64,000 bases of DNA from Escherichia phage VTCCBPA_211. Position numbers and translations under genes: made by a program. Shown piece by piece: positions 1,387-60,485 of this stretch (its first letter is position 1; each line of letters begins with the position of its first letter). Below the pieces are notes generated by a model, which was given only the letters and a program-made list of their open reading frames with translations, searched no databases and had not been told where the DNA came from. The DNA lies in the sequence record PP989838.1; one strand, written 5' to 3'.

Positions 1387-1413
1387 ATAACCAATTTTCA
1401 GGAGTAACAAAAA

Positions 1414-1665
1414 ATGAGTAACGAAGCGATTAAATTATCCAGCGGTGTTTCTTGTTTTGTGTGTGATACTTTTATCTCGTTCGGCTTGGAAGAAGGTTGC
1501 GTTATAATCCCTACCGTTGCCTTTTGTTCCATGAGTTTTAGCGAGGCTAAAAGATGGCTCCAATTGGTGCGCATTGATATAAATCGCGATGACTTCCGTT
1601 CAATTTACAATGACGGTGGTTTGTCGCTTGCTGGTCTTCTGGATTGTGATTTGCCAAAATGGTGA
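1414..1665 (+). CDS. hypothetical early protein
   Basis: ORF with SD caggag upstream; Cys-rich. Confidence 0.5.
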   Translation: MSNEAIKLSSGVSCFVCDTFISFGLEEGCVIIPTVAFCSMSFSEAKRWLQLVRIDINRDDFRSIYNDGGLSLAGLLDCDLPKW

Positions 1666-1871
1666 TAAAAATGATTCATGATTATCTTTGGCGTTGCTTG
1701 TTCGTTGTTACAGTGGCGTTGTTCGTCGCTGATATGCTTTATTCTTACATCCTTTGAGGTCCGGTTGTGTTGTTTCTGTTTTTGTTTGCCATTGGCTTCA
1801 TTTCTTTAAATTATTTACTGATTGTTGCCGCTCTCGATGTTATTAATCTCACCATTAAAGGTTGATTGGCT

Positions 1872-1967
1872 ATGTGGTTTATTAGATTCGTCGTTAAAAC
1901 GGTTGTAGGCTTCTTTCTGGTCATTCTTCTGTTAGGTGTCCTTCTATCGGCTATGGGTAATGCTTAA
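1872..1967 (+). CDS. small hydrophobic peptide (31 aa), speculative
   Basis: ATG 1872, TAA 1965-1967; translation MWFIRFVVKTVVGFFLVILLLGVLLSAMGNA is one TM helix. Confidence 0.2.
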   Translation: MWFIRFVVKTVVGFFLVILLLGVLLSAMGNA

Positions 1968-2359
1968 ATCCATAGGCTTAATCTTTCTCCTGTATTGTGC
2001 CGTGGTCATGCCTATGGTCATAATCTATCTGATGCTCTAATCCTTCCTATAAGCGCCGCTATGGCGCTTTTCTGTTTTCTAAGGTGATTGTATTCCTTAC
2101 TCCCTTTTAGTTCGCTGTAGTGCGTTTTAGGCCGTTAAATATCGATTTACAAGCCGTTTCCTATGATGTACCGCGTGCGTGCGCTCTTTTACTCTCCCAC
2201 TATGAAAAAAGTTTAAAATATTTTGCTTTACCCTATTGCATCCCTCACTGATTAATGTATACTTCATTTCATCGGGTACGATGTAAAACATACAAGGCAA
2301 GAAATTGCCCCGCTCTTTAAAAATCAGGCTAGAAAGTGAAAATATTCTTAAAAAGAGTA

Positions 2360-2388
2360 TTGACACCAGAAAAAGCCTGATACATAAT
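2360..2388 (+). promoter_or_regulatory. sigma70-type early promoter P1
   Basis: TTGACA (2360-2365), 17-nt spacer, CATAAT (2383-2388); A-rich UP-like tract upstream. Confidence 0.6.
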
Positions 2389-2509
2389 TAGCACACAGTC
2401 AGCGATGACTTGAAAAATCCCGCTCTTTAAAAACTTATCATCTTGCCCTTTCGCACAGAATCACGCGAGAAAGAGGGATAGAAAAGAAAAGAAGATGATA
2501 AAAAAGAGA

Positions 2510-2538
2510 TTGCAAACGTGGTTAAAGTAGTTCATACT
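2510..2538 (+). promoter_or_regulatory. sigma70-type early promoter P2
   Basis: TTGCAA (2510-2515), 17-nt spacer, CATACT (2533-2538); upstream aaaaagaga tract. Confidence 0.5.
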
Positions 2539-2814
2539 AACCACAAGTTAGCAAAACATCGCTAACTAGTTCCCAAATCAACGTATCGCGGGAAAGGTGG
2601 CACATAGTGCAGCGAGTAGTTCGGGATTAGGCGCCCCGTTAATGAATAAGTAAGCCTTTAATGATGCAGTGATTAGCAGACACTATAAAAGGCTAAAAAC
2701 GCTCTTTAACAAAATGAATCATGAGTTAAGCCTTATCGCTTAATCTTCAACCCAACAAAGCGGGTTGATATATCCTCCCAATAGAGGGAACGACGAAAAA
2801 GATTAAAAAAGTGG

Positions 2815-2843
2815 TTGACGGCGAAAACATCATGGTCCATAAT
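2815..2843 (+). promoter_or_regulatory. sigma70-type early promoter P3
   Basis: TTGACG (2815-2820), 17-nt spacer, CATAAT (2838-2843); A-rich tract upstream. Confidence 0.6.
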
Positions 2844-3615
2844 GAGCACACTCAAGCAAAACACCGCTTCAGTGAAAAGCGAAACAACGGCTTACAGTTG
2901 CGTAGTGTGAGAAAGCACACTGACAGATTTACCGCTCTTTAATAATTTAAACATTCTCCTATATCGGTTGCATATGCTGGAAGATAATAACCATCGGAAA
3001 GCATACCAGATAAAACGGTGTAAGGCCCCTAAACTATCAGGGTAAACAGTCTTACAATCCCTTAACTGGAAACGTCACCACTGTTAAACGGATTCATTGA
3101 GTACACGCAACGGCTTAAACTAATCGCCCACGGTTAAAGGGTAGCGGCGGCCATCGCTAACAAGGTGCTACAATGAAAGAAGTTTATCAGGGTAGGCAAG
3201 TCCGACAAATTAACGCCCAATTGAGGGCGGCGGGGGATGGTTAAAAAGTGGCAAATTGCTATTTAACAATAAGGTTTAATGCGAACGTTTACGATGTGAA
3301 CGGCTTGAGATTCGTCTTATGACGGAAGTACATAGTCGGGTTATGTAGTAAACCCGCCGAAAGATATAAAACGCCGGAATATTAGGCGGTCAATGATCTC
3401 TTTCCGCAATAACCTCCCGTAGTGGGCGATGGTTAGCGGTTAGGAGTTGGCACAAAGGATAAGCGGGAGCGAAAACAAAGTAGACGATATTGCCGACGGT
3501 TACAGCAATGTAATTAAATAGAGTCGGACGCATAGCCTTATTGTGATGATTGATCATCGCTATCAGGTCGGCTTCGTTTATAGCGACTAATTAAAGATAC
3601 CAGATGAAACATCAC

Positions 3616-3664
3616 GGATAAGGGGGCGGCAAGGTTAACTCCTGATAAGACCGCCCCGCTTATC
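3616..3664. repeat. imperfect inverted repeat (about 13 bp arms, 21-nt spacer)
   Basis: ggataagggggcgg ... ccgccccgcttatc read directly. Confidence 0.35.
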
Positions 3665-3765
3665 AATAATTACTTAACAATGAGTGGTTATCGATAAGTC
3701 AACAGTGACTTAAAAAGCTCATAGAGAGCGGGGCATAGTGCCCTTACAATTGAAAGGTGAATATC

Positions 3766-4665: not shown

Positions 4666-4688
4666 GTAAGACAATCTAAATAAACATA

Positions 4689-4720
4689 AGGCGCTATCTT
4701 AACGGGTAGCGCCTTTTCTT
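4689..4720 (+). terminator. rho-independent terminator
   Basis: ggcgcta...tagcgcc hairpin followed by ttttcttt. Confidence 0.6.
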
Positions 4721-4766
4721 TATCAGTGCATTGATTCAGTGCATTAATCAAAGAATCTAATCAAAG

Positions 4767-4994: not shown

Positions 4995-5215
4995 TATTCA
5001 GTAATAATTTTGGCAAGTGTCCTATTTGTGAGAAGCATCGCAGCACGGGAAACCATCGCAAGTGTAGTAAGATATTACAGCGCCAACGTGATAACAACCA
5101 TTGGGATACTGTGCACACTAACCAGCGTAAAGAAGAAGTTAGGAAAATGGCTGTTAAAGCGTCGTTTGCTCAATCAACCCGTATCGAACATATTCAAAGG
5201 TATCAAGCATTATGA
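4991..5215 (+). CDS. hypothetical small protein with CxxC motif
   Basis: ATGA overlaps at both ends; GKCPICEKH. Confidence 0.5.
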   Translation: MIFSNNFGKCPICEKHRSTGNHRKCSKILQRQRDNNHWDTVHTNQRKEEVRKMAVKASFAQSTRIEHIQRYQAL

Positions 5216-5421
5216 TCACTAATATTTCAGAGTTTAAGAAAGCGCCATCTCGTTTGTTAGGTCGTCGTGTTATATATCTTTACAGCAATAAAGGTAAATG
5301 TACAACCGGACAAATTACAACGGTGAGTAGTACCAACAAAACATTACTAAAATTATGCGTAACTATGGATGATGGTACAATCCTGCTACGTAGTTGGAAG
5401 TCATTTAGTTTACTCGATTAA
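5212..5421 (+). CDS. hypothetical small protein
   Basis: ATGA overlap with upstream gene. Confidence 0.5.
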   Translation: MITNISEFKKAPSRLLGRRVIYLYSNKGKCTTGQITTVSSTNKTLLKLCVTMDDGTILLRSWKSFSLLD

Positions 5422-5490
5422 GTTATTTGTTCAAGCCTATCGCCTTGGTGGGCTTGCCCGATATAACTTATCACTGAAAGGAGTGAGATT

Positions 5491-5934
5491 ATGGCTAAAT
5501 CTAAAATCAGTATGAAGGGCGGGCGTTGTTTTTCTATCTCTGAACTGGAGAAAGAGAAGCCGAAGGCAACCAATTACATTAGTAAGCGCAGTTTAAAACG
5601 TCGTGCTGCAAAGGCTGAAGCTGAATCCTATATCCCTTCTAGTGTGGCAAAACGTGTAGGTCATCGCGTCCATCGTGCTGATGCGTTGTTGTTAGCTGAT
5701 CATAAACGTTCTTTGTTAAAGAGCGGGGGAGCTAAAACAGAAGAAGAGAAGAAATTAGAAATATTCTGTAATGGTCGCACCCGTGGTAAACAGAAGTTTA
5801 AGGGTAGCACGAAAGACCCTCAGGCTTTCCCTAAGACAAGCCAGTGTGCACCTGATGTTTTCTACGCAGACAGTAAACACAAGTGGGGCGTTGAAAAATA
5901 CATTGACCCTATCAAAGAGGCGAGGGTTAAGTAG
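5491..5934 (+). CDS. basic (Lys/Arg-rich) early protein, unknown function
   Basis: SD gaaaggag; 147 aa ORF. Confidence 0.6.
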   Translation: MAKSKISMKGGRCFSISELEKEKPKATNYISKRSLKRRAAKAEAESYIPSSVAKRVGHRVHRADALLLADHKRSLLKSGGAKTEEEKKLEIFCNGRTRGKQKFKGSTKDPQAFPKTSQCAPDVFYADSKHKWGVEKYIDPIKEARVK

Positions 5935-5947
5935 TAGGAATATATCC

Positions 5948-5979
5948 CCTCTTTTAGTACTATGACGCTCTTTCTGTAG
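5948..5979 (+). promoter_or_regulatory. conserved intergenic motif CCTCTTTTAGTACTATGACGC (copy 1; copy 2 at 11708-11740)
   Basis: Near-identical roughly 30-nt block immediately after stop codons at two loci. Confidence 0.35.
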
Positions 5980-6013
5980 CGTCGTGCCCTCTCCCCATTT
6001 GAAGCTTCCGCAT

Positions 6014-6037
6014 AGCCGCCTTTGAGCGGCTTTTTGC
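6014..6037 (+). terminator. putative intrinsic terminator
   Basis: agccgc...gcggct hairpin followed by ttttt. Confidence 0.45.
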
Positions 6038-6098
6038 GTTGCTGTAAGTGCATTTGCGAGTGTATTTATAGCAACGGTCATGTGTTGCTTTCAGGTTT

Positions 6099-6126
6099 GC
6101 CCCGGCTACGGCTGGGGCTTTTTTAT
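6099..6126 (+). terminator. intrinsic terminator
   Basis: gccccggc tacg gctggggc hairpin followed by tttttta. Confidence 0.6.
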
Positions 6127-6173
6127 GCCCGTAAAACAGGAGGTAGCAAGTTCTGATAACAACGGCACAGCTA

Positions 6174-6563
6174 ATGTTGACATTGACTATTTATTATGAG
6201 GCAGGGAATCAGCCAACCGCATGTAAAGCTATGGTTGCGGATACCGTGATAAATAGAATGGCCCAACGAAAACTGACCGCTGAACAGGTGATAAGACAAA
6301 AGAACCAGTTTGAGTGGATTCCGGTACTATTAAAACAGGAGAAACCTTATAAACGTTATGTAAAGCTGATTCGTGATAAAAATCCGATGACTAAGCAAGC
6401 CATTGGAGAAAGCGAGCGACTTGCTAAACGTGCCCTTAAGAAGAATTATGTTCCGCTGTACAGTGGGACTTACTTTCAGAGTAAGAGCGAAGGGGTGCCA
6501 AAATGGTATGCCAATCCCATGTATTGTGGTGATTTAGTGTTCGATAATAGCTCTAGGGAATAA
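6174..6563 (+). CDS. putative SleB-like cell-wall hydrolase domain protein
   Basis: Motifs EAGNQPTACKAMVADTVINRM and QKNQFEW resemble the SleB/Hydrolase_2 family (recollection). Confidence 0.45.
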   Translation: MLTLTIYYEAGNQPTACKAMVADTVINRMAQRKLTAEQVIRQKNQFEWIPVLLKQEKPYKRYVKLIRDKNPMTKQAIGESERLAKRALKKNYVPLYSGTYFQSKSEGVPKWYANPMYCGDLVFDNSSRE

Positions 6564-6762
6564 TCACTAGTGCCAGATTTGACAAACTAAATTCCTTTAT
6601 AAACCAACCACTTAGTAAATTTATTGAAAAAGATGGTAGTATTCTGGGACTATGAGTAATGCTCTGTATATAGACCCTTTGAAAATTTCTTAGAAAATAA
6701 GTTTACTAAATATAACTTACTTAAATAATATTACTTTTAATCTCTGATAAAGGGTAAATAAT

Positions 6763-7059
6763 ATGACTTTAGAAGTATATAAATTCCTTTTTGTAAGCTG
6801 TTTAACTATCAGCGTTATAGGATTTATTATCCTTAGAAACAAAGCAGCAAGCTGGGAGAGAATGTATAAATCCCTAGTCCGAGTGGATGAGATGTATAAT
6901 GAGAAAGTTAAAGTGACTCTTAACGATCTTATTATGCAAGTTGAAGACAGAAACAAACGTCTTCAGAACCTCAATCATGAAGTATTGCGCCTTGCTCGTG
7001 CTAATGAAGACTTGCGAGTGGCTATTGCTAAGCAGCAGGAGATTAACAGTGATAATTGA
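6763..7059 (+). CDS. membrane-anchored coiled-coil protein, unknown function
   Basis: N-terminal TM (FLFVSCLTISVIGFIIL) then helical region. Confidence 0.5.
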   Translation: MTLEVYKFLFVSCLTISVIGFIILRNKAASWERMYKSLVRVDEMYNEKVKVTLNDLIMQVEDRNKRLQNLNHEVLRLARANEDLRVAIAKQQEINSDN

Positions 7060-7060
7060 T

Positions 7061-7285
7061 ATGAACCATCCACCAAAGAAGTTAACTCTTGGGGATCTAG
7101 ATTCAGGTGATGTGTTCCAATTCTTTGTGAACTCTGATGATTTTTATATGGCTTCCTGTAGATTTAACAAATCGGATGGTTGTAGAAATTATATGAACCT
7201 TTCGAACGGTGTGATCTCAGCAGATCGTAATACTGTGGTTGTTAAGAAGATTAACAATGCTCGACTTACAGATAAGGTGGATTAA
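7061..7285 (+). CDS. small-protein paralog family A, member 1
   Basis: ATG 7061 right after upstream stop; motif LTLGDLDSGDVFQF shared with six other ORFs. Confidence 0.55.
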   Translation: MNHPPKKLTLGDLDSGDVFQFFVNSDDFYMASCRFNKSDGCRNYMNLSNGVISADRNTVVVKKINNARLTDKVD

Positions 7286-7287
7286 CA

Positions 7288-7524
7288 GTGAAAGTTAATA
7301 TTAAATCTGATCGTACAATGCTTCGATTAAATAACATGAAGCCGGGCGTTCTGTTTGAGCGTAAAGAGTCCCTTTATATTAGAACTGACACATTGTACGC
7401 AGATAACTATGTGAACTGTGTTGATGTGGTAACTGGAAAGCTAATGCCTATTAAACGAGATGAAGTCTGCCAAGTACGCAGTGATCTCCACATAACAAAC
7501 ATAGAGGCTAAAGATGAAGATTGA
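7288..7524 (+). CDS. small-protein paralog family A, member 2
   Basis: Tandem with 7061 and 7514 genes; similar size and motif layout. Confidence 0.5.
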   Translation: MKVNIKSDRTMLRLNNMKPGVLFERKESLYIRTDTLYADNYVNCVDVVTGKLMPIKRDEVCQVRSDLHITNIEAKDED

Positions 7525-7768
7525 TCTGAACCTTAAAGCTAAAGAATTGCGTGTGGGTGATTTGAAACTTGGTGATGTGTTCCAAGTTAAGGCAACATGT
7601 ATTGATTATTACATGATTGTTCAGCTATACACACCACATGTGTCAGAGACTGATCTTCGGAATGGTTGTGTAGTTCTTAGTTTAAGCACCAATCAAGTAA
7701 TGAAGCTAGATTCAAACTTACCTGTTTCAGTCATCCATGATGTAGTAATTACTAATAAAGAAAAGTAA
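7514..7768 (+). CDS. small-protein paralog family A, member 3
   Basis: LRVGDLKLGDVFQV motif. Confidence 0.55.
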   Translation: MKIDLNLKAKELRVGDLKLGDVFQVKATCIDYYMIVQLYTPHVSETDLRNGCVVLSLSTNQVMKLDSNLPVSVIHDVVITNKEK

Positions 7769-7776
7769 CATCGACT

Positions 7777-7880
7777 TATAGCCCTTGTGTTTATCAGAGG
7801 GCTATGTGAGGGTGTTCCTCATTAACTTATTAATTCAGGCATATGCCACACCGCTAGGGAGAGCTTGCTCGAACATCCGG
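7777..7880 (+). promoter_or_regulatory. conserved intergenic element (hairpin + GTGAG + GCTAGGG...AACATCCG), copy 1
   Basis: atagccct...agggctat hairpin at 7777-7805 then gctagggagagcttgctcgaacatccgg at 7853-7880; near-identical copy at 12041-12150. Confidence 0.4.
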
Positions 7881-8126
7881 TGTTAGACTAAAACCTGTTA
7901 ATTTTCGAAAGACTTTCTGATATGTAGGGGTACATATTGGTTTGGGATTCAGGAGACTTCCTAGGGGTAGGGAGTCTTCACCAGTTGGGATAAGAGATAG
8001 CTCTAGAACCTGAACTCTTAGGCAGAGAAGGTCGGCAATGAGTACGCGGTCAGAATTAGTCTACTGACTAGGGCTATCCCTTATATCAACTGGCAATAAT
8101 GCCTCCACTAACAAAGAGAGATAGAT

Positions 8127-9379: not shown

Positions 9380-9456
9380 GCGCCCTTAGTTCAATTGGAC
9401 AGAACATCGGATTTCTAATCCGTCGGTTACAGGTTCGAATCCTGTAGGGTGCGCCA
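9380..9456 (+). tRNA. tRNA-Arg (anticodon UCU)
   Basis: Hand-folded cloverleaf: acceptor GCGCCCT/AGGGTGC, D-arm GTTC..GAAC, anticodon loop TTTCTAA, T-arm ACAGG TTCGAAT CCTGT, 3' CCA encoded. Confidence 0.8.
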
Positions 9457-40495: not shown

Positions 40496-40521
40496 TTAGC
40501 CACCTTCGGGTGGCTTTTTTC
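40496..40521 (+). terminator. intrinsic terminator
   Basis: agccacc ttcg ggtggct hairpin followed by tttttt. Confidence 0.65.
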
Positions 40522-40795
40522 GTTGGAGACAATATGCAAAGTACATTAAGTGATAATGTAGGGTTTATCATTTTCTCAGCTCTTGTATTCTTTGGTGGTA
40601 TGAAGTTTAACGAGTACCAAACAGACAGCAGTAATCTGGACAAAGAGAAGCACCAGCAAGAGTTAGAGATTGAAAGAAGTAGGGCAGCTGATGAAGTTGC
40701 TCAGAGGGTTCTTACCGGTTTGTCTAACTGGAAGAAGAACACGGAAACTATTTATAAAGAGATGCATTATGAGAAAACTAAACCAGTTTTTTATA

Positions 40796-42052
<1,257 letters not shown>

Positions 42053-44665: not shown

Positions 44666-47600
44666 TCACTCCTTAGGTCGAACTCTTACACGGAGTCTCG
44701 ATTGACGCTTACTGCGTTCAAGCTTCTCTGACAATGAGCCACGTTTAATCTTCGGCTTCCCTTCGTCATTAAACTTCTCCAAGAACTTCAAGTACTCAGT
44801 ACGATTCGTTGTCTTGTAAGAAGGAATCTTAACATCAGGGTTCTCTTCGATTACACGTCTCATCTTCGCTACATCATCCCTACCAAGCAACTTACTCTTA
44901 GCCTGTTCAGCTGTAGAACCAAAGATCTTCTCCAGTGCCCTAGATTTGTTACCACCTGCGGAAGAAGCACCAAGTTTAGCAATGGCAGAGTAATCATCAG
45001 CACTAAACCAAGCTACTGGATTATCACCATACTTCTTCTTGTTTTCAGCAGCAGTCTGCAATGCACGCACAAAGCGACGGTTGTTACCAGCCTTATCTGC
45101 ACCATGAACCCTGTCTAAAACTTCAGCCACACTAGCCAACTCATCCAAGCTCTTCCCACTCAAGAAAGCTTTCTCTACTTTATCAGCAAAGACCTCTTCT
45201 TGTTGTTTAATGCTTTCCAAGATATCAGAATTTGCTTGAGATTTTTCATCATCAGGCAGAGCAGAACGAATCTTCTCCATCTCCAACTCTTCCTCTTGCA
45301 GTTTCTTAATATCAGAGTCAACCTTCTGAGCCTCCTCAACAGCCTTCCTAGTATCCGAATCCAAGTTATCAAGCTTACCTTCAGTATTTCCAGTAACCTT
45401 AACAATCTCTTTCTCGATAGGAGTCATTGATTCGTACTTCTTAGCGAACTTCTCAACATCAGCTTCGATACGAGAGCGAGCATTCTGATGTTCAGTCGGA
45501 GTCATAGGCTTCTCAAGAAGTGCATAACGGTTATCCATATAGGAACCAGCAAACGCTTCAGCATCCTCTCTAGATATGCCCTTATCTTCCATAGTACGCA
45601 TCAGGCGGCGATGAATGTCATCACGTTGACGTTGTACTGCCATAAGGTCATTCTCACGCTCTTGGGCCGCTTTAAGCTCTTCACTGCGCTTAACTCTCTT
45701 GTCCACATCAAACTTACGGTTCATCTCTTCCGCTTGCTCATACATCTTGTTCCACTTAGCCTGACGAGCATCTTCCTCTGCATCAGTTAAACGACGCTGA
45801 CGATCAAGGTAATCTGACTCGGCGTTGTGGATACGTTCAATATAACTACGGAACTTCTCTGGAGGAACTGGAGAGTTCTTATCGTGGTGAGCAGCCAACT
45901 GTTTCAGTGTACGAGATTCCTGAGCCTTACGAACAGGTTTAGGTAAACCTTCCATCATCTTCTCAATCTCACTCTTCTGAGCTGCAATAGCCTCTAGAGT
46001 TTTACGTTCATTCTCAACAGCAGCTTTAGCATCCGAACGAGCCTGAGCCTTTTTCCTGAGTGTAGCAAGACGTTCTTCACGAGCCTGTAAATGCTTAGCA
46101 GCAGCTTCGTACTGAGAGTTCTTGTTAGCTTTGTTGAAGGCATTCACTTCTCTGTTATAGGTGTTAATAAACCCATCCCAAATATCCTTCATCTGACCAA
46201 CTTCCAAAGCCTCTTCCCTACCAGCCTTCTCTGAAGATTTAAACTTTCCATCTACAAAGTCATTCATCAATTTACGCATAGCGTCTTTCTGAGCAGGACG
46301 TAAAGGTTCTGCATCAATCAAAGTATCAATCTCAGACTGAAGCTCTTTCTTCTGGTCAACCAGCTTAGGAGCATTCTTGTTATCGAAAGCTTTATTCTCT
46401 TCTAGAGCTTGTTGGTACAGTCTATCAAACTCATCTTCACGCTGCTTCTGATACAACCTTTCAGCACGACGTTTCAGACTATCCAAGTTAGTTACGTTCC
46501 CACCTAAACCTTTCTCTTCAGCACGTAATGCCTTAGTAGCAATGTCTTCTGGCAGACCACGTTCTTTAACCCATTCAGCAAAGTTAGTTCGTACAGTGTT
46601 GTTCTTAGCAGTAGCAATACCTTGCTGAGAAGCCAGCTGGTTACGAGCCATCTCTTCATGACGTTCAGTGTTGATAGCATTATCTTCCCGACGAATACGC
46701 CGCATCAACTCCAAAGGGTCTCCCTTGTAAGCCAAGAAGTTTTCAGCAGTAGCTTTAGCTTTAGCAGCCTTAGAGTATAAAGATTTAGCAAAACGTGTTG
46801 CACGATCTTTAGCAACTTGACGAGCAGTGCTTGACATAGCAGCTAGGAATTCTACACCACTTTCCGGTTTAACATCCTGTACAGCTTCCTGAGGAGCTTT
46901 AGGGGAACGGGTAGGTAATGGATCAGCTTGTCTTAGAGAACTAGCTTTGACCATATCATTTGAGTCAACCAAATTATGGTTACGCAAAAACTGTTGCTCA
47001 GCCGGGGTGAACTGATTTAGGCGAAGGGCAATGTTGCCATTTAAATCTTGAGAAAGTATCCCATCTTCAGCATAGTGAGAGAGAGATTCTTTAGTAACAG
47101 AAGATGCATCCTCTGATGAAGCCTTTTGGCCCTCTTCTTGAGCACGTTGCTGCTCTGTTGCACGGCGCTCCTCTAAAGGATTACGAGCAGGAAGAGGTTC
47201 AGCCTGTGGAGCTTGTTCAACAGGAGCTTCTTGAGCAGCCAATGCCTCTTCTTCAGCGCGACGCTGTTCAGCCTGACGGATAGCACGTCTTTGAGCAACT
47301 AAATCACGAGCCGTAAGAGGGGCTTCTTGAGGAGCAGAAGAAGGAAGATTTTCTTCCGTCACAGTACTAGAAGAAGGCTCCCGAACCGGTTCGGTTTCCA
47401 CGTCATTTTGCGTCTTAAAATTAATGTCATCAACAGCTGGTTCTTCTTCCATCTTAGTGCGAGCTTCATCAGCAGCGGATTTAGCACGAGCAACTTCCAA
47501 ATCACCACGAGCTAGAGAGCGGATAGCTTCACTGTTAGATTCTTGTTGCTTAACACGTTGAGAGCGAGCACGCTGAGAAGAGAAGCGATTCAGAGCATAT

Positions 47601-49246
47601 TTAGCAGCACCAAGAGTGTTCATTACCAGACTAGGTGAAGAAGCCTCACGGAAGCCATCATCAGTCAGGGAAGTCCAGCCACGATCTTGGTTGCTCATGA
47701 ATTTAGCTGTATTGTTCAGAGTGTAAGCATCTTGGATAGGATTAAAACCTTCAGGCATACCTTTCAGTTTCTTCAACCCACCAATAGCTTTCTTCATCTC
47801 TGGAGAAACATTATCAGCCATCTTCTGTAGTTCAGCAGCTTTCTCTACAAAGTTATTAAAGTCTTCACCATCACGAGCTTTGAATCGATTTGCTTCATTA
47901 TAGAAAGTCTTGTAAGCATCAATGAAATCACGGTCAGCTTGTGTGCGATTCTTAACGTCAAGTGGACTACCGGTGAAGTGCCCAGATGCTCTAAGAGAAG
48001 TTAATTCACGATCTAGGTTGTCTAGAACATCTGTAAGGGCTTTCGTGTTGTCTTTGGTGTAATCAGCCATTGCATCCTTCATAGCAACAGCCTGCTTCTG
48101 GTTGTGCTCGTTATCAGCGAATGCTTTACCACGAGTCTTAGCAGGAGAAGCTAAAGGGTTGAGGCCCGGAATGTTGGAATGTTCTTTCTGAACGGAAGCA
48201 GCTTTCTCAGCACGAGCTTGGTCAGTATTAAGAATACGCTGAGCAGCAGGAGAATCTACAGCAACAGCATCTGTAATACGGAATCCATTCTCATCTAGAA
48301 GGTTCAGAGCAGAAGCAGCGTTAGCAGTTTCAGCTTTAGAGTAAGCCTCTTTCAGCTCATCAATATTCTTAGCACTACGAATCAGTTCATCATCAGCAGC
48401 AATATCAGTCTTCGCATACTCTGGAGTGTTCCTGAAGACAGCAGAATCCGGACGGCTAATCAAACCATGAACCCCACCAACTGCACCACCAAATGCAGCA
48501 CCCATAGCTCCTTCTTCGATAACACCTTCCAATGTCTTAGCTAGATCATTGTCATCACCATACTTGTTCTGCGCTTCAGCAGCACCTATAAGAGCTCCGC
48601 CCTTAGCACCAGCCACTGCGTTAGTAGCAACGTTCTGACCAATACGTCCAAGTGTGGACTCAGCTGTACCAACAGCACCCGGAAGGATTCTCATAGCCGC
48701 GTAGTTAGCACCACCAACTAAAGCTGCATCTAGAATAGACTTATCTTCTCCCTCTTCAGGGGTTTGGTCTGCATACGCACGACCTGTCTCACGACCTGCG
48801 ATGATAGCAGCAGCCGCCAATGGGTTAGCAACAGTCATGCCGATATCACCAGCAACGCCAGCATACTGACCAACAGTTTTACCAATCCCATCCTCAATCT
48901 TATCCATACGTTCTTTCAGAAGGTTCTGAGAGTTCTCTTGGATACGCTTACCATAACTAGTTTGTGCTCCAGCTAGATTCTCACCAATCTCAACTAAACC
49001 ACCAATACCTTTAGCAGCACTAGCTGCGATGTTTGCACCACCAGATTGAAGAGCATTTGACACACCTTGAGCAAACTCACCTATAGCACCACGTTCTTCT
49101 TGTTGTGGTTGTGCTGCTGGTTGTTCCTCAGGAATAGAGCCACCTGCTGCCTTATATTGTTCTCTCATTTGAGCCTGCTGCTCTGGAGAGGCATTCAGAT
49201 ACGCAGGAGCTTTGGAAGCTTCTTCCCACGGTTTAATGTTAGCCAT
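44666..49246 (-). CDS. large virion protein (internal/ejection or tape-measure-like), 1526 aa from ATG 49246
   Basis: Gly/Ala-rich N-terminal third then long coiled-coil-like region; SD aaggag before ATG 49246-49244. Confidence 0.7.
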   Translation of the reverse strand: MANIKPWEEASKAPAYLNASPEQQAQMREQYKAAGGSIPEEQPAAQPQQEERGAIGEFAQGVSNALQSGGANIAASAAKGIGGLVEIGENLAGAQTSYGKRIQENSQNLLKERMDKIEDGIGKTVGQYAGVAGDIGMTVANPLAAAAIIAGRETGRAYADQTPEEGEDKSILDAALVGGANYAAMRILPGAVGTAESTLGRIGQNVATNAVAGAKGGALIGAAEAQNKYGDDNDLAKTLEGVIEEGAMGAAFGGAVGGVHGLISRPDSAVFRNTPEYAKTDIAADDELIRSAKNIDELKEAYSKAETANAASALNLLDENGFRITDAVAVDSPAAQRILNTDQARAEKAASVQKEHSNIPGLNPLASPAKTRGKAFADNEHNQKQAVAMKDAMADYTKDNTKALTDVLDNLDRELTSLRASGHFTGSPLDVKNRTQADRDFIDAYKTFYNEANRFKARDGEDFNNFVEKAAELQKMADNVSPEMKKAIGGLKKLKGMPEGFNPIQDAYTLNNTAKFMSNQDRGWTSLTDDGFREASSPSLVMNTLGAAKYALNRFSSQRARSQRVKQQESNSEAIRSLARGDLEVARAKSAADEARTKMEEEPAVDDINFKTQNDVETEPVREPSSSTVTEENLPSSAPQEAPLTARDLVAQRRAIRQAEQRRAEEEALAAQEAPVEQAPQAEPLPARNPLEERRATEQQRAQEEGQKASSEDASSVTKESLSHYAEDGILSQDLNGNIALRLNQFTPAEQQFLRNHNLVDSNDMVKASSLRQADPLPTRSPKAPQEAVQDVKPESGVEFLAAMSSTARQVAKDRATRFAKSLYSKAAKAKATAENFLAYKGDPLELMRRIRREDNAINTERHEEMARNQLASQQGIATAKNNTVRTNFAEWVKERGLPEDIATKALRAEEKGLGGNVTNLDSLKRRAERLYQKQREDEFDRLYQQALEENKAFDNKNAPKLVDQKKELQSEIDTLIDAEPLRPAQKDAMRKLMNDFVDGKFKSSEKAGREEALEVGQMKDIWDGFINTYNREVNAFNKANKNSQYEAAAKHLQAREERLATLRKKAQARSDAKAAVENERKTLEAIAAQKSEIEKMMEGLPKPVRKAQESRTLKQLAAHHDKNSPVPPEKFRSYIERIHNAESDYLDRQRRLTDAEEDARQAKWNKMYEQAEEMNRKFDVDKRVKRSEELKAAQERENDLMAVQRQRDDIHRRLMRTMEDKGISREDAEAFAGSYMDNRYALLEKPMTPTEHQNARSRIEADVEKFAKKYESMTPIEKEIVKVTGNTEGKLDNLDSDTRKAVEEAQKVDSDIKKLQEEELEMEKIRSALPDDEKSQANSDILESIKQQEEVFADKVEKAFLSGKSLDELASVAEVLDRVHGADKAGNNRRFVRALQTAAENKKKYGDNPVAWFSADDYSAIAKLGASSAGGNKSRALEKIFGSTAEQAKSKLLGRDDVAKMRRVIEENPDVKIPSYKTTNRTEYLKFLEKFNDEGKPKIKRGSLSEKLERSKRQSRLRVRVRPKE

Positions 49247-49284
49247 AACGTCTCCTTTTATAAATAAAAATGTCCTACCCCCTA

Positions 49285-49293
49285 TATACATTA
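49285..49293 (-). promoter_or_regulatory. TAATGTATA motif upstream of large virion gene
   Basis: - strand TAATGTATA about 39 nt upstream of ATG 49246. Confidence 0.4.
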
Positions 49294-53059: not shown

Positions 53060-53842
53060 TTACTTAACACCAATGCTAGCCAAACGTCTAAGCACTGCTT
53101 GTGTTTGTGGACTGTACTGAGAACCTGCCGCATGTGGTGCACTTGCTCTCTGAACTGTTTGAGAAGTAGGAGGTTTACCAGCAAGCATAGCAGCTACTCC
53201 TAATACTGCATTACCAAAGTTCTGTTGGGGCTTCTGGTCTTCACCTTCCTGCACTTCATCAGAGTAAAATTCTACTGGATTTCCACCTAAAGCGCCTGTC
53301 TTAGAAGCAGCAATCTCTGCCTGAGTTGGAGCTTGTGCGGCCTTCTCTCTATCTAGCAAGTCAGGGCTAAATTGATTGGCTGGTTGAACAGCTTGTAAAG
53401 CCCCTACAGGGTTAGCAATCTGAGAAGCTGCATCACCATAGAAAGGAAGAAAGTGTTTATTGTTCATGGAGTCAAGAGCCTGAGGGGTAAACCCTTTCTT
53501 ACCAGCGAACATCTGCTTAGCACCACCAGTTCCCTCTGAGTAGCCAACCATTGCCTTCTTAACATCGCCATTAAAAGCTTTCAGGTTGTCTCTGATGTAA
53601 CGAGCACCCATATCGATATTCTTGGCTGGGTCAAGCCTATCTTCTAACTTGTAACCATAATCTTTAGCTAACCCTTTACTGATCTGCATCAAACCAACAG
53701 GACCAGTTCCGGAAGCCACCTTAGGACGACCACTAGACTCCCTTTGAATTACAGCATGAATCAAAGCAGCTGGAATACCATACTTCTTTGAAGCCTGTTG
53801 AACCATCGGGTCTAGTTCTTCTATACCCATTCTAATTGCCAT
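53060..53842 (-). CDS. lytic transglycosylase (SLT domain), likely virion-associated
   Basis: QRESSG...GLMQI signature near N-terminus. Confidence 0.75.
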   Translation of the reverse strand: MAIRMGIEELDPMVQQASKKYGIPAALIHAVIQRESSGRPKVASGTGPVGLMQISKGLAKDYGYKLEDRLDPAKNIDMGARYIRDNLKAFNGDVKKAMVGYSEGTGGAKQMFAGKKGFTPQALDSMNNKHFLPFYGDAASQIANPVGALQAVQPANQFSPDLLDREKAAQAPTQAEIAASKTGALGGNPVEFYSDEVQEGEDQKPQQNFGNAVLGVAAMLAGKPPTSQTVQRASAPHAAGSQYSPQTQAVLRRLASIGVK

Positions 53843-59745: not shown

Positions 59746-60237
59746 TTAATATTTACCTTCGGTGTAAAGATTAGCTTCTGCAACTCTTCTATTATGAAGA
59801 CCCTGACTTCTCTGCTTCTCTCCCTTGACCGTTATTTTATCCCAACGAAGAAATTCGGAATAAACATCCCCCTTAACATCTCCATTGATTACCTTCCTTA
59901 ACTTAGATGTGCTCAAAGCCCCACTGCCAACATTGAAGTTGAAAGAAGTGAGTGCATCAAACTCATGAACTAGTAAAGGAACCTTTATGTTCTTCTGAGT
60001 AGCACGAACAGAGTCTTGTGTGTCTCTATCTAGCAGAGCTAGACAATCCTCTATAGAATACGTTAATCCTTGTCTAACCGGATAACCATTCATATCGCGC
60101 GTAGCCCCTACACATATAGTCCAGATACCTGCGGAATCTTTATAAGCCTTGGTTCTCATACCCTCATGCTTCATGATGAATTCCATTCCAGCTGGGCTTA
60201 AGTTTAGTTGTACAGGTGGCAATGCGACGTTATCCAT
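59746..60237 (-). CDS. endolysin, GH24 phage lysozyme
   Basis: EGMRTKAYKDSAGIWTICVGAT and VPLLVHEFDALTSFNFNVG match P22/lambda-type lysozyme motifs. Confidence 0.85.
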   Translation of the reverse strand: MDNVALPPVQLNLSPAGMEFIMKHEGMRTKAYKDSAGIWTICVGATRDMNGYPVRQGLTYSIEDCLALLDRDTQDSVRATQKNIKVPLLVHEFDALTSFNFNVGSGALSTSKLRKVINGDVKGDVYSEFLRWDKITVKGEKQRSQGLHNRRVAEANLYTEGKY

Positions 60238-60266
60238 TTCTAACCTCCTTTTGTAGTCCCTTTAAA

Positions 60267-60485
60267 TTAAGGTAGTATCTTTCTCAGAGCGTTAGATTCA
60301 GCATCAGGGCAAATAACAACCAAGTTGTTTTGAATAGTTCTCTGCTTACATTGAGAACTAAGCTTCTCAACAGGAGCTGGTGCTGTGACTAATGGATGGA
60401 CTGCGTTAACAGGAACTGCTGTAGAAACCACAACCCCTGCACCTAAACAGACTAAACCGTAAACAGCTTGTTTCATCATTTTCAT
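60267..60485 (-). CDS. small membrane/secreted protein next to endolysin (possible holin or lysis accessory)
   Basis: Hydrophobic N-terminus AVYGLVCLGAGVVVSTAV. Confidence 0.35.
   Translation of the reverse strand: MKMMKQAVYGLVCLGAGVVVSTAVPVNAVHPLVTAPAPVEKLSSQCKQRTIQNNLVVICPDAESNALRKILP

Follow-up and report, generated by a model that had tools for sequence, protein, structure and literature searches.

A small gene in the early region of Escherichia phage VTCCBPA_211 very probably encodes a SleB-fold, peptidoglycan-directed protein. From comparative sequence analysis we propose that this protein may act as a conserved accessory lysin of prolate (C3-morphotype) podophages, of the lytic-transglycosylase type and dependent on the holin, a functional reading to which we give about even weight. 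The window analyzed is a stretch of 64,000 nucleotides of this phage (sequence record PP989838.1), and the coordinates of the features discussed are collected in Table 1. A preliminary description of the window had called an open reading frame (ORF) of 129 residues, which is present as described; our analysis points to a longer product of 136 residues with a predicted mass of 15.8 kDa and a pI of 9.7. Residue numbers refer to the 136-residue form throughout, so that Glu16 corresponds to Glu9 of the 129-residue form.

Table 1 Features of the SleB-like gene, its surroundings and the other lysis-related genes in the window.
Feature	Position	Strand	Remarks
Strong sigma-70-like early promoters (2360-2388 and 2815-2843)	2360..2843	+	Best sites upstream
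Terminator-like hairpin 3' of 302-aa early gene	4688..4723	+	
Second terminator-like hairpin, 3' of 147-aa gene	6014..6039	+	Terminator annotated in 4E8
Intrinsic-terminator-like hairpin, 8 bp (7 G-C), followed by TTTTTT	6099..6125	+	About 15 nt 5' of the Shine-Dalgarno site
Shine-Dalgarno site AGGAGGT, 8 nt 5' of CTG 6153	6139..6145	+	
SleB-like protein, proposed full CDS, CTG start, 136 aa	6153..6563	+	Stop included
SleB-like ORF, 129-aa form, ATG start	6174..6563	+	Preliminary description and most GenBank records
Codon GAG, Glu16, putative catalytic Glu in Y-x-E-A	6198..6200	+	
Codon of Cys24, co-varies with Cys125	6222..6224	+	
Codon of Arg35 (N-R motif), catalytic-groove Arg	6255..6257	+	
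Codon of Cys125, partner of Cys24 (putative disulfide)	6525..6527	+	
Codon TTA, Leu128, at the SleB groove-His position	6534..6536	+	
AT-rich spacer (28% GC), about 200 bp, promoter-like element	6564..6762	+	Strongly conserved even in distant relatives
Rz-like spanin, middle region	40510..40884	+	phrog_1152, E 2.4e-37
SLT-domain ejection protein, equivalent to SU10 gp20	53060..53842	-	PF01464, E 2e-24
GH24 (Phage_lysozyme) endolysin	59746..60237	-	PF00959, E 3.6e-32
Holin, 72 aa, just upstream of GH24 gene	60267..60485	-	phrog_11161, E 6.7e-48

VTCCBPA_211 is a phiEco32/SU10-like coliphage. Region 5000-8000 of the window matches 99 phage records at 80-99% identity, nearly all of them from Kuravirus-group podophages of Escherichia or Shigella, including phiEco32, SU10, Paul, YF01 and BASEL Bas86-94. 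Orthologues of the SleB-like ORF are gp117 in phiEco32 and CDS116 in SU10. The assignment of the gene to the early region, made in the preliminary description, agrees with SU10, where CDS69-125 are classed as early, and the region that holds the gene is also classed as early in phiEco32 and YF01. The gene occurs in essentially all of the approximately 99 Kuravirus-group records. Of 21 distinct sequence contexts that were read, 19 have an undisrupted ORF, and the 136-residue frame is intact in 98 records, as judged by identity bands and not by each sequence. Pairwise dN/dS values of 0.07-0.2 (about 0.1), at a lineage dS of 0.2-1.8, indicate that the gene is under strong purifying selection. Its base composition is unremarkable (44% GC), and recent horizontal acquisition was rejected on this ground. 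An Rfam scan of the window returned a tRNA-Arg and no other RNA element.

The assignment to the SleB family draws on both sequence profiles and the predicted fold. In Pfam, the protein scores 33.5 bits (E 6.9e-8) with PF07486 (Hydrolase_2, 'Cell Wall Hydrolase', the catalytic domain of SleB and CwlJ), above the gathering cut-off of 27, and this is its sole domain match. In PHROGs it has a family of its own, phrog_12974, together with a weaker match to an endolysin family. A word-indexed homologue search returned close relatives only, and PDB sequences compared with the single sequence or with a shallow profile of 13 close relatives gave nothing meaningful; an AlphaFold2 model built on that shallow alignment had a pLDDT of 46.6 and was discarded. 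When 1.84 billion cluster representatives were searched exhaustively with HMMER, a small family emerged, with 74 sequences at E <= 1e-3, of which 5 reach E <= 1e-10. With a deeper alignment (A3), in which all 33 members match PF07486, the family profile finds the SleB catalytic domains 4F55 (E 3e-17) and 4FET (E 1e-16) in the PDB, and AlphaFold2 returns a confident model (pLDDT 92, pTM 0.88). Both the gathering threshold and the SleB catalytic-domain fold therefore place the protein in PF07486. The SleB/Hydrolase_2 domain of the preliminary description is thus backed by Pfam, family profile and fold, and the profile search, which could have spoken against a hydrolase fold, supported it.

Membership in the domain family does not make the protein a SleB orthologue, as it consists of a single domain with no hydrophobic N-terminus. 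The hallmarks of SleB proper, namely a signal peptide, an N-terminal PG_binding_1 domain and a YpeB partner, were looked for with the 136-residue protein and not found. Compared with Bacillus SleB/CwlJ (4FET, 4F55), to which it is about 15% identical, the phage protein also has an additional helical segment, inserted between Q-F-x-W and the A-x-x-A helix. Hydrolase_2 is among the catalytic domains that dominate the lysins of phages on Gram-negative hosts, and a basic pI such as that predicted here is typical of these Hydrolase_2 lysins (PMC8223927). The domain in exactly this gene is already annotated publicly, and the domain call itself adds little: the orthologue in phage Paul is named 'cell wall hydrolase' with a note citing PF07486, the same name is used in XT18, ShigP1 and EcP-vB, Ptacy1532 has 'hydrolase', and the UniProt entry for SU10, which is the top BFVD match, reads 'Cell wall hydrolase SleB domain-containing protein'.

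At the SleB catalytic groove the picture is mixed. [quoted passage not shown] Glu16 aligns with the glutamate of the SleB Y-G-E-S motif and is invariant in 33/33 family members. Arg35 is likewise invariant (33/33), at a Glu-to-Arg spacing of +19 that is the same as that of E203/R222, and the aromatic pair Y107/F108 is conserved. The position of the groove His, however, is occupied by Leu128, such that the SleB motif G-x-H-x-F reads G-D-L-V-F here; 20 of the 33 family members have His at this position, and the Kuravirus clade shares the Leu with its nearest relatives. Because the Glu, Arg and aromatic residues are kept but the His is replaced, catalysis is plausible, not assured, and the substitution could have altered or abolished activity.

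Translation probably starts at CTG 6153, 21 nt upstream of the annotated ATG 6174, with AUA 6156 as a less likely alternative. Relatives with 136 residues (69-74% identical, encoded on syntenic phage contigs) have seven extra residues at the N-terminus, and so do most members of the wider family. Read in frame, positions 6153-6173 of the window encode L-I-T-T-A-Q-L, and across 21 distinct contexts these codons show only synonymous third-position variation (ACA/ACG, ACG/ACA, GCA/GCC, CTA/CTG), while ATG 6174 is replaced by CTT in the SU7, 4E8, ECBP2 and NC-B lineages. The codon homologous to the start of the relatives is CTG in 18/18 Kuravirus/Suseptimavirus contexts, TTG in three 136-residue relatives and ATG in 7-11. 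As an in-frame stop lies just upstream of CTG 6153, there is no canonical start further 5'.

The Shine-Dalgarno site in front of this codon is kept as AGGAGG or GGGGG in 21/21 distinct sequence contexts. Its calculated pairing with the 16S anti-Shine-Dalgarno sequence (-11.6 kcal/mol) falls in the top 0.3% of random positions and ranks second among 22 genes of the window, whereas the corresponding value for ATG 6174 and TTG 6177 (-1.7 kcal/mol) is no better than that of random positions. Additionally, in the AlphaFold2 model the extra residues begin helix 1 (residues 4-17, pLDDT ~94), the helix that bears the catalytic Glu. The conserved codons, the lost ATG, the homologous starts, the Shine-Dalgarno site and helix 1 together lead us to place the coding sequence as proposed in Table 1. 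E. coli seldom initiates translation at CUG, and a Shine-Dalgarno site conserved together with such a start codon would represent, for a coliphage, a rare example of near-cognate initiation. Most of the roughly 100 Kuravirus records list the product as a 'hypothetical protein' of 129, 128 or 101 residues, and the start codon in these is probably wrong.

The surroundings of the gene suggest that it is weakly expressed. The two early promoters in Table 1 are the only plausible sources of a transcript that reaches it, and one of them (site 2815-2850) matches the published SU10 early promoter 73511 with 4 substitutions. Three terminator-like hairpins, at 4688-4715, 6014-6031 and 6099-6118, stand between these promoters and the gene. 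The hairpin closest to the gene has been preserved, in the SU7 clade through a compensatory change from G-C to T-A, and the Paul, 4E8 and SU7 records mark it as a terminator. Folding of region 6085-6180 as a whole is not unusual (z -0.72), and the terminator hairpin itself is stable. The layout of terminator, Shine-Dalgarno site and gene is shared with the 7-11 homologue. On the downstream side, the AT-rich spacer carries annotated promoter features in the SU7 and 4E8 records, and a sigma-70 consensus scan of it gives weak matches only, so that its promoter nature rests on its conservation and on the calls of other annotators; it would mark the downstream limit of the transcription context. 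Since the gene lies alone between the terminators and the downstream promoter region, it would be transcribed only via read-through, and the upstream terminators combined with a near-cognate start codon suggest low expression. A proteome of SU10 lysate and virions, a survey that is not exhaustive, identified 34 proteins, several early and middle products among them; the absence of CDS116 from this list fits a low abundance.

The window also encodes a complete canonical lysis set. The GH24 endolysin and the virion SLT transglycosylase that the preliminary description listed are both present, the latter as the equivalent of SU10 gp20, which has been described as a transglycosylase ejection protein (PMC9509320). 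The SleB-like gene is, as had been stated, far from the lysis genes (59.7-60.5 kb for holin and GH24 endolysin, 40.5 kb for the spanin), and the profile, fold and context checks agree with its proposed standing as a third peptidoglycan-active function. A comparison of this window with 7-11 and GAP52 shows no conserved holin or spanin adjacent to the gene, and the three neighborhoods share the SleB-like protein only; across these lineages no membrane protein is conserved among its neighbors. Of the features of a canonical endolysin, the gene thus has the muralytic catalytic domain and lacks the linkage to holin and spanin. Virulent phages commonly encode a muralytic enzyme apart from the holin, and T5-like phages and 7-11 likewise combine a main endolysin with a stand-alone SleB-like gene.

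With no export signal, the product is predicted to stay in the cytoplasm. The earlier statement that it has neither signal peptide nor transmembrane segment is borne out by a maximum Kyte-Doolittle 19-residue mean of 0.61, as against about 2.1 for the SAR endolysins P1 Lyz and phage 21 R21, and by the lack of a basic N-terminal region, the first 24 residues containing neither Lys nor Arg. Export by a SAR domain, a transmembrane segment or a signal peptide was accordingly rejected on hydropathy and charge. The protein resembles SAR endolysins in that an N-terminal helix precedes or carries the catalytic Glu and in having cysteines potentially under redox control. Unlike them, its N-terminus is too weakly hydrophobic for an anchor and the helix is integral to the SleB fold, and it is not a SAR endolysin.

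The cysteines in question, Cys24 and Cys125, co-vary. Among 84 family members, 26 have both, 57 have neither and 1 is discordant, counts that are not independent events as the sequences are related, and the alternative to the Cys/Cys pair is a Gly plus a bulky hydrophobic residue. This pattern suggests that the two residues are in contact and form a disulfide in some lineages. Because a disulfide forms only outside the reducing cytoplasm, the pair would support action on murein after release.

When 50,697 phage records were searched by tblastn, the gene also turned up beyond the Kuravirus group, at 28-38% identity, in other prolate podophages, among them Salmonella phages 7-11 and SeKF_80, Cronobacter phages GAP52 and CsaP_009, Proteus phage P59 and Aeromonas phages. 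Homologues outside the Kuravirus group are mostly annotated as endolysin; that of 7-11 is 31% identical (pairwise E 1e-14) and matches phrog_12974 too. The main endolysin beside the gene is of the GH24 type in Kuraviruses, M15 in 7-11 and T5-like phages, and GH19 in LNA4. The second endolysin of 7-11 is a Peptidase_M15_4 protein (Pfam E 7e-7; phrog_465 E 3e-46) encoded beside a Ser/Thr phosphatase, and the 'endolysin endopeptidase' of the Privateer paper (PMC7881722) is evidently this M15 enzyme, not the SleB-like protein. Because the gene co-exists with main endolysins of differing types, we regard it as accessory.

Together, these observations can be arranged into a model for an accessory lysin. 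Early sigma-70 promoters would be read through up to three terminator hairpins into the gene, where the strong Shine-Dalgarno site and the weak CUG would yield the basic protein at a low level. The protein, kept in the cytoplasm by its predicted lack of an export signal, would meet the murein alongside the GH24 endolysin once the late holin permeabilizes the inner membrane. Glu16 would then act as the general acid in cleaving MurNAc-GlcNAc bonds, and Cys24-Cys125 could oxidize at the murein to a stabilizing disulfide. The bond chemistry expected is that of a lytic transglycosylase, which gives anhydro-muropeptides, as opposed to that of the hydrolytic GH24 lysozyme. As the gene lies in the early region of a phage that already has a complete canonical lysis set, its contribution to lysis may be redundant. 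Counting against a lysin role, Bacillus SleB needs a muramic-delta-lactam cortex substrate, which E. coli lacks; in comparison with SleB, the protein described here is phage-encoded and cytoplasmic.

Soluble cytoplasmic muralytic enzymes that are encoded outside the lysis cassette and expressed before the late genes occur in virulent coliphages, as in T7 gp3.5 (T7 lysozyme) and T4 gpe; the former, an amidase, doubles as a regulator of T7 RNA polymerase. The folds of these two enzymes (amidase_2 and GH24, respectively) are unrelated to that of the SleB-like protein, for which no regulatory function is indicated, and the comparison is one of analogy only.

It is unlikely, in our analysis, that the SleB-like protein would instead serve a non-lytic, moonlighting purpose in the cytoplasm, whether as an early binding or regulatory factor or as an enzyme acting on a cytoplasmic sugar-containing substrate. 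The early-region location, the lack of an export signal and the replacement of the groove His by Leu would all suit such a protein, and its retention beside different main endolysins (GH24, M15) would suggest a role that is not redundant with them. However, the catalytic Glu and groove Arg are invariant family-wide and the co-varying Cys pair points to an oxidizing compartment; moreover, neither a partner nor a cytoplasmic glycan substrate is known, and no conserved neighbor gene hints at a pathway.

We consider it quite unlikely that the protein is a trace-expressed, redox-latent lytic transglycosylase, a lineage-wide accessory module of prolate podophages whose function is distinct from bulk lysis whichever main endolysin (GH24 or M15) is present. 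The trace expression may come from the conserved strong Shine-Dalgarno site, the CUG start and the upstream terminators in combination, and the latency may arise because Cys24-Cys125 is reduced in the cytoplasm and oxidized after release. If true, the candidate functions would be those of a fail-safe or timing device for lysis, a processor of murein to anhydro-muropeptides, or a factor with an early intracellular role.

The loss of the groove His bears on a decidedly unlikely proposal, in which the protein is a catalytically impaired binder or modulator of murein or muropeptides. Leu replaces His throughout the Kuravirus clade and in the relatives closest to it (P0016, P0018 and P0019), at a position (H301) that is counted among the SleB catalytic-groove residues (PMC13556211). 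Yet the essential Glu is strictly retained under strong purifying selection, the His is missing in other family members also (e.g. P0049), and in the sources on SleB we found no demonstration of a role for this His in catalysis.

Comparably little probability attaches to the gene being a relic of an ancestral endolysin that was replaced by an acquired holin/GH24 cassette and is now barely expressed and on its way out. According to the SU10 paper, 7-11 and GAP52 lack holin and lysozyme (PMC4281155; see also PMC7881722), the GH24 enzyme is at least 80% identical within Kuraviruses only and about 42% identical elsewhere, and the start codon weakens from ATG in 7-11 through TTG in the 136-residue relatives to CTG in Kuraviruses. 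A gene in decay would nevertheless be difficult to reconcile with the low dN/dS, the largely intact ORF and the conserved strong Shine-Dalgarno site. In addition, 7-11 carries its own M15 endolysin besides the SleB-like gene, for which reason we rejected the gene as the sole ancestral endolysin of 7-11/GAP52/Privateer-type phages.

Finally, a virion-associated enzyme that helps the ejected DNA through the murein is highly improbable and was rejected, for although BFVD shows Hydrolase_2 within very large virion-type proteins (1191-1385 aa) of other phages, the product here is a small protein of an early gene with no structural-module context, is absent from the SU10 virion and lysate proteins and from the ejection set gp20-24, in which gp20 (SLT) is given the peptidoglycan-degrading role, and finds no support in the SU10 proteomics or the cryo-EM paper (PMC9509320).

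The accessory lysin proposed here has its closest counterparts in the stand-alone Hydrolase_2 'endolysins' or 'cell wall hydrolases' of other phages on Gram-negative hosts (7-11 AEK82026.1, GAP52_091, the T5-like 'SleB', Erwinia Y2, Goslar and GAP31). Like it, these proteins are small (~130-190 aa) and basic, consist of one domain and lack a signal sequence; their genes often lie apart from the holin, in phages that encode another endolysin as well, and our literature search found no biochemical characterization of them. The Kuravirus clade differs from these phages in its CTG rather than ATG start and in having Leu rather than the groove His, and it has the Cys pair, which is absent from 7-11 and GAP52. 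That virulent phages tend to carry an extra stand-alone Hydrolase_2 gene is already on record. What the present comparison appears to add is modest: the probable CUG start with its strong Shine-Dalgarno site, the terminator-flanked position, the replacement of His by Leu, the co-varying Cys pair and the conservation beside different main endolysins. Unrelated virulent groups (Kuravirus, 7-11-like, T5-like and rV5/phapecoctavirus-like) keep a stand-alone SleB-like gene as well as a main endolysin, and as Kuraviruses are therapeutic phage candidates, their full muralytic inventory is relevant to enzybiotic mining.

In Suseptimavirus, orthologues of the SleB-like gene are annotated at only 101 aa (SU7, locus L003 982-1287; ECBP2, locus L005 971-1276; protein entry P0013). 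These calls begin at an internal Met, 3' of the putative catalytic Glu codon, while the full 136-codon frame is intact. The active-site helix is consequently lost from the annotated proteins, and it is this truncation that explains why the Suseptimavirus entries return no Pfam match.

The site directly 5' of the Shine-Dalgarno sequence of the SleB-like gene is an insertion hot spot. In phiEco32, the insertion (locus L002 1536-2469, gp119-gp118) carries an additional gene for a 265-aa 'agglutinating adhesin' together with a small ORF, and these replace the terminator found at 6099-6118 in the window with a different hairpin. Insertions of 400-820 bp occur at the same site in other phages, and phiEc_1, SR02, KM01, SGF2 and 172-1 all give two-piece matches.

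On its 3' side, the SleB-like gene is followed by an AT-rich spacer of 200 bp (6564-6762) that is far more conserved than the synonymous sites of the gene itself, even in comparison with a distant metagenomic relative (L090). The conserved blocks include GGTGCCAgaTTGACAAACTAAATTCCTTTATAAACCA and TGGTAGTA...GTAATG..CTGTATATAGACC, the second of which is similar to ttggtagtagatatgataactctcaaatgtatatagag, the 'middle promoter' of SU10 at 47227. The spacer probably serves the early genes downstream as a regulated promoter or operator. The 98-aa ORF that follows is named 'DNA helicase' in phrog_12154 and in several GenBank records; this name is implausible given the size and make-up of the protein, and looks like a propagated misannotation. 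In GAP52, the second gene 3' of the SleB-like gene (GAP52_089; L094 3627-4175) encodes a 182-aa protein that is not conserved in the window. Its N-terminus is a lipoprotein-type signal (MRKIAIIGACIGSMFLLGC), and the protein may be an outer-membrane lipoprotein or a spanin-like component.

The envelope-disruption genes of the window are spread over four places in the genome. In phage 7-11, the position of the Rz-like spanin is taken by an M15 endolysin beside the phosphatase. The 1540-aa ORF, which has no Pfam match at E <= 1e-3, is the counterpart of Bas90_0020, a large 'hypothetical protein' encoded after the ejection proteins.

Coordinates and setting of selected features in the window
Feature	Position	Strand	Setting or character
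SleB-like gene	6153-6563	+	early region
98-aa ORF	6763-7059	+	hydrophobic N-terminal segment (KD 1.65), then coiled-coil-like sequence
tRNA-Arg (anticodon TCT)	9380-9456	+	early region; single tRNA
Rz-like spanin	40510-40884	+	middle region, beside sigma factor and phosphatase genes
1540-aa ORF	44666-49291	-	late region
SLT	53060-53842	-	ejection module
Holin and GH24	59746-60485	-	among tail genes

ORFs of 100 aa or more are sparse in a stretch of about 2.3 kb (1400-3750). The region's strongest sigma-70-like promoters lie there, at 2360-2388 (11/12 matches) and 2815-2843, as do several terminator-like hairpins on both strands. The counterpart of this stretch in SU10 is the CDS120-CDS121 spacer, with three early promoters. 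Phage Paul likewise has a single tRNA-Arg (TCT) in its early region.
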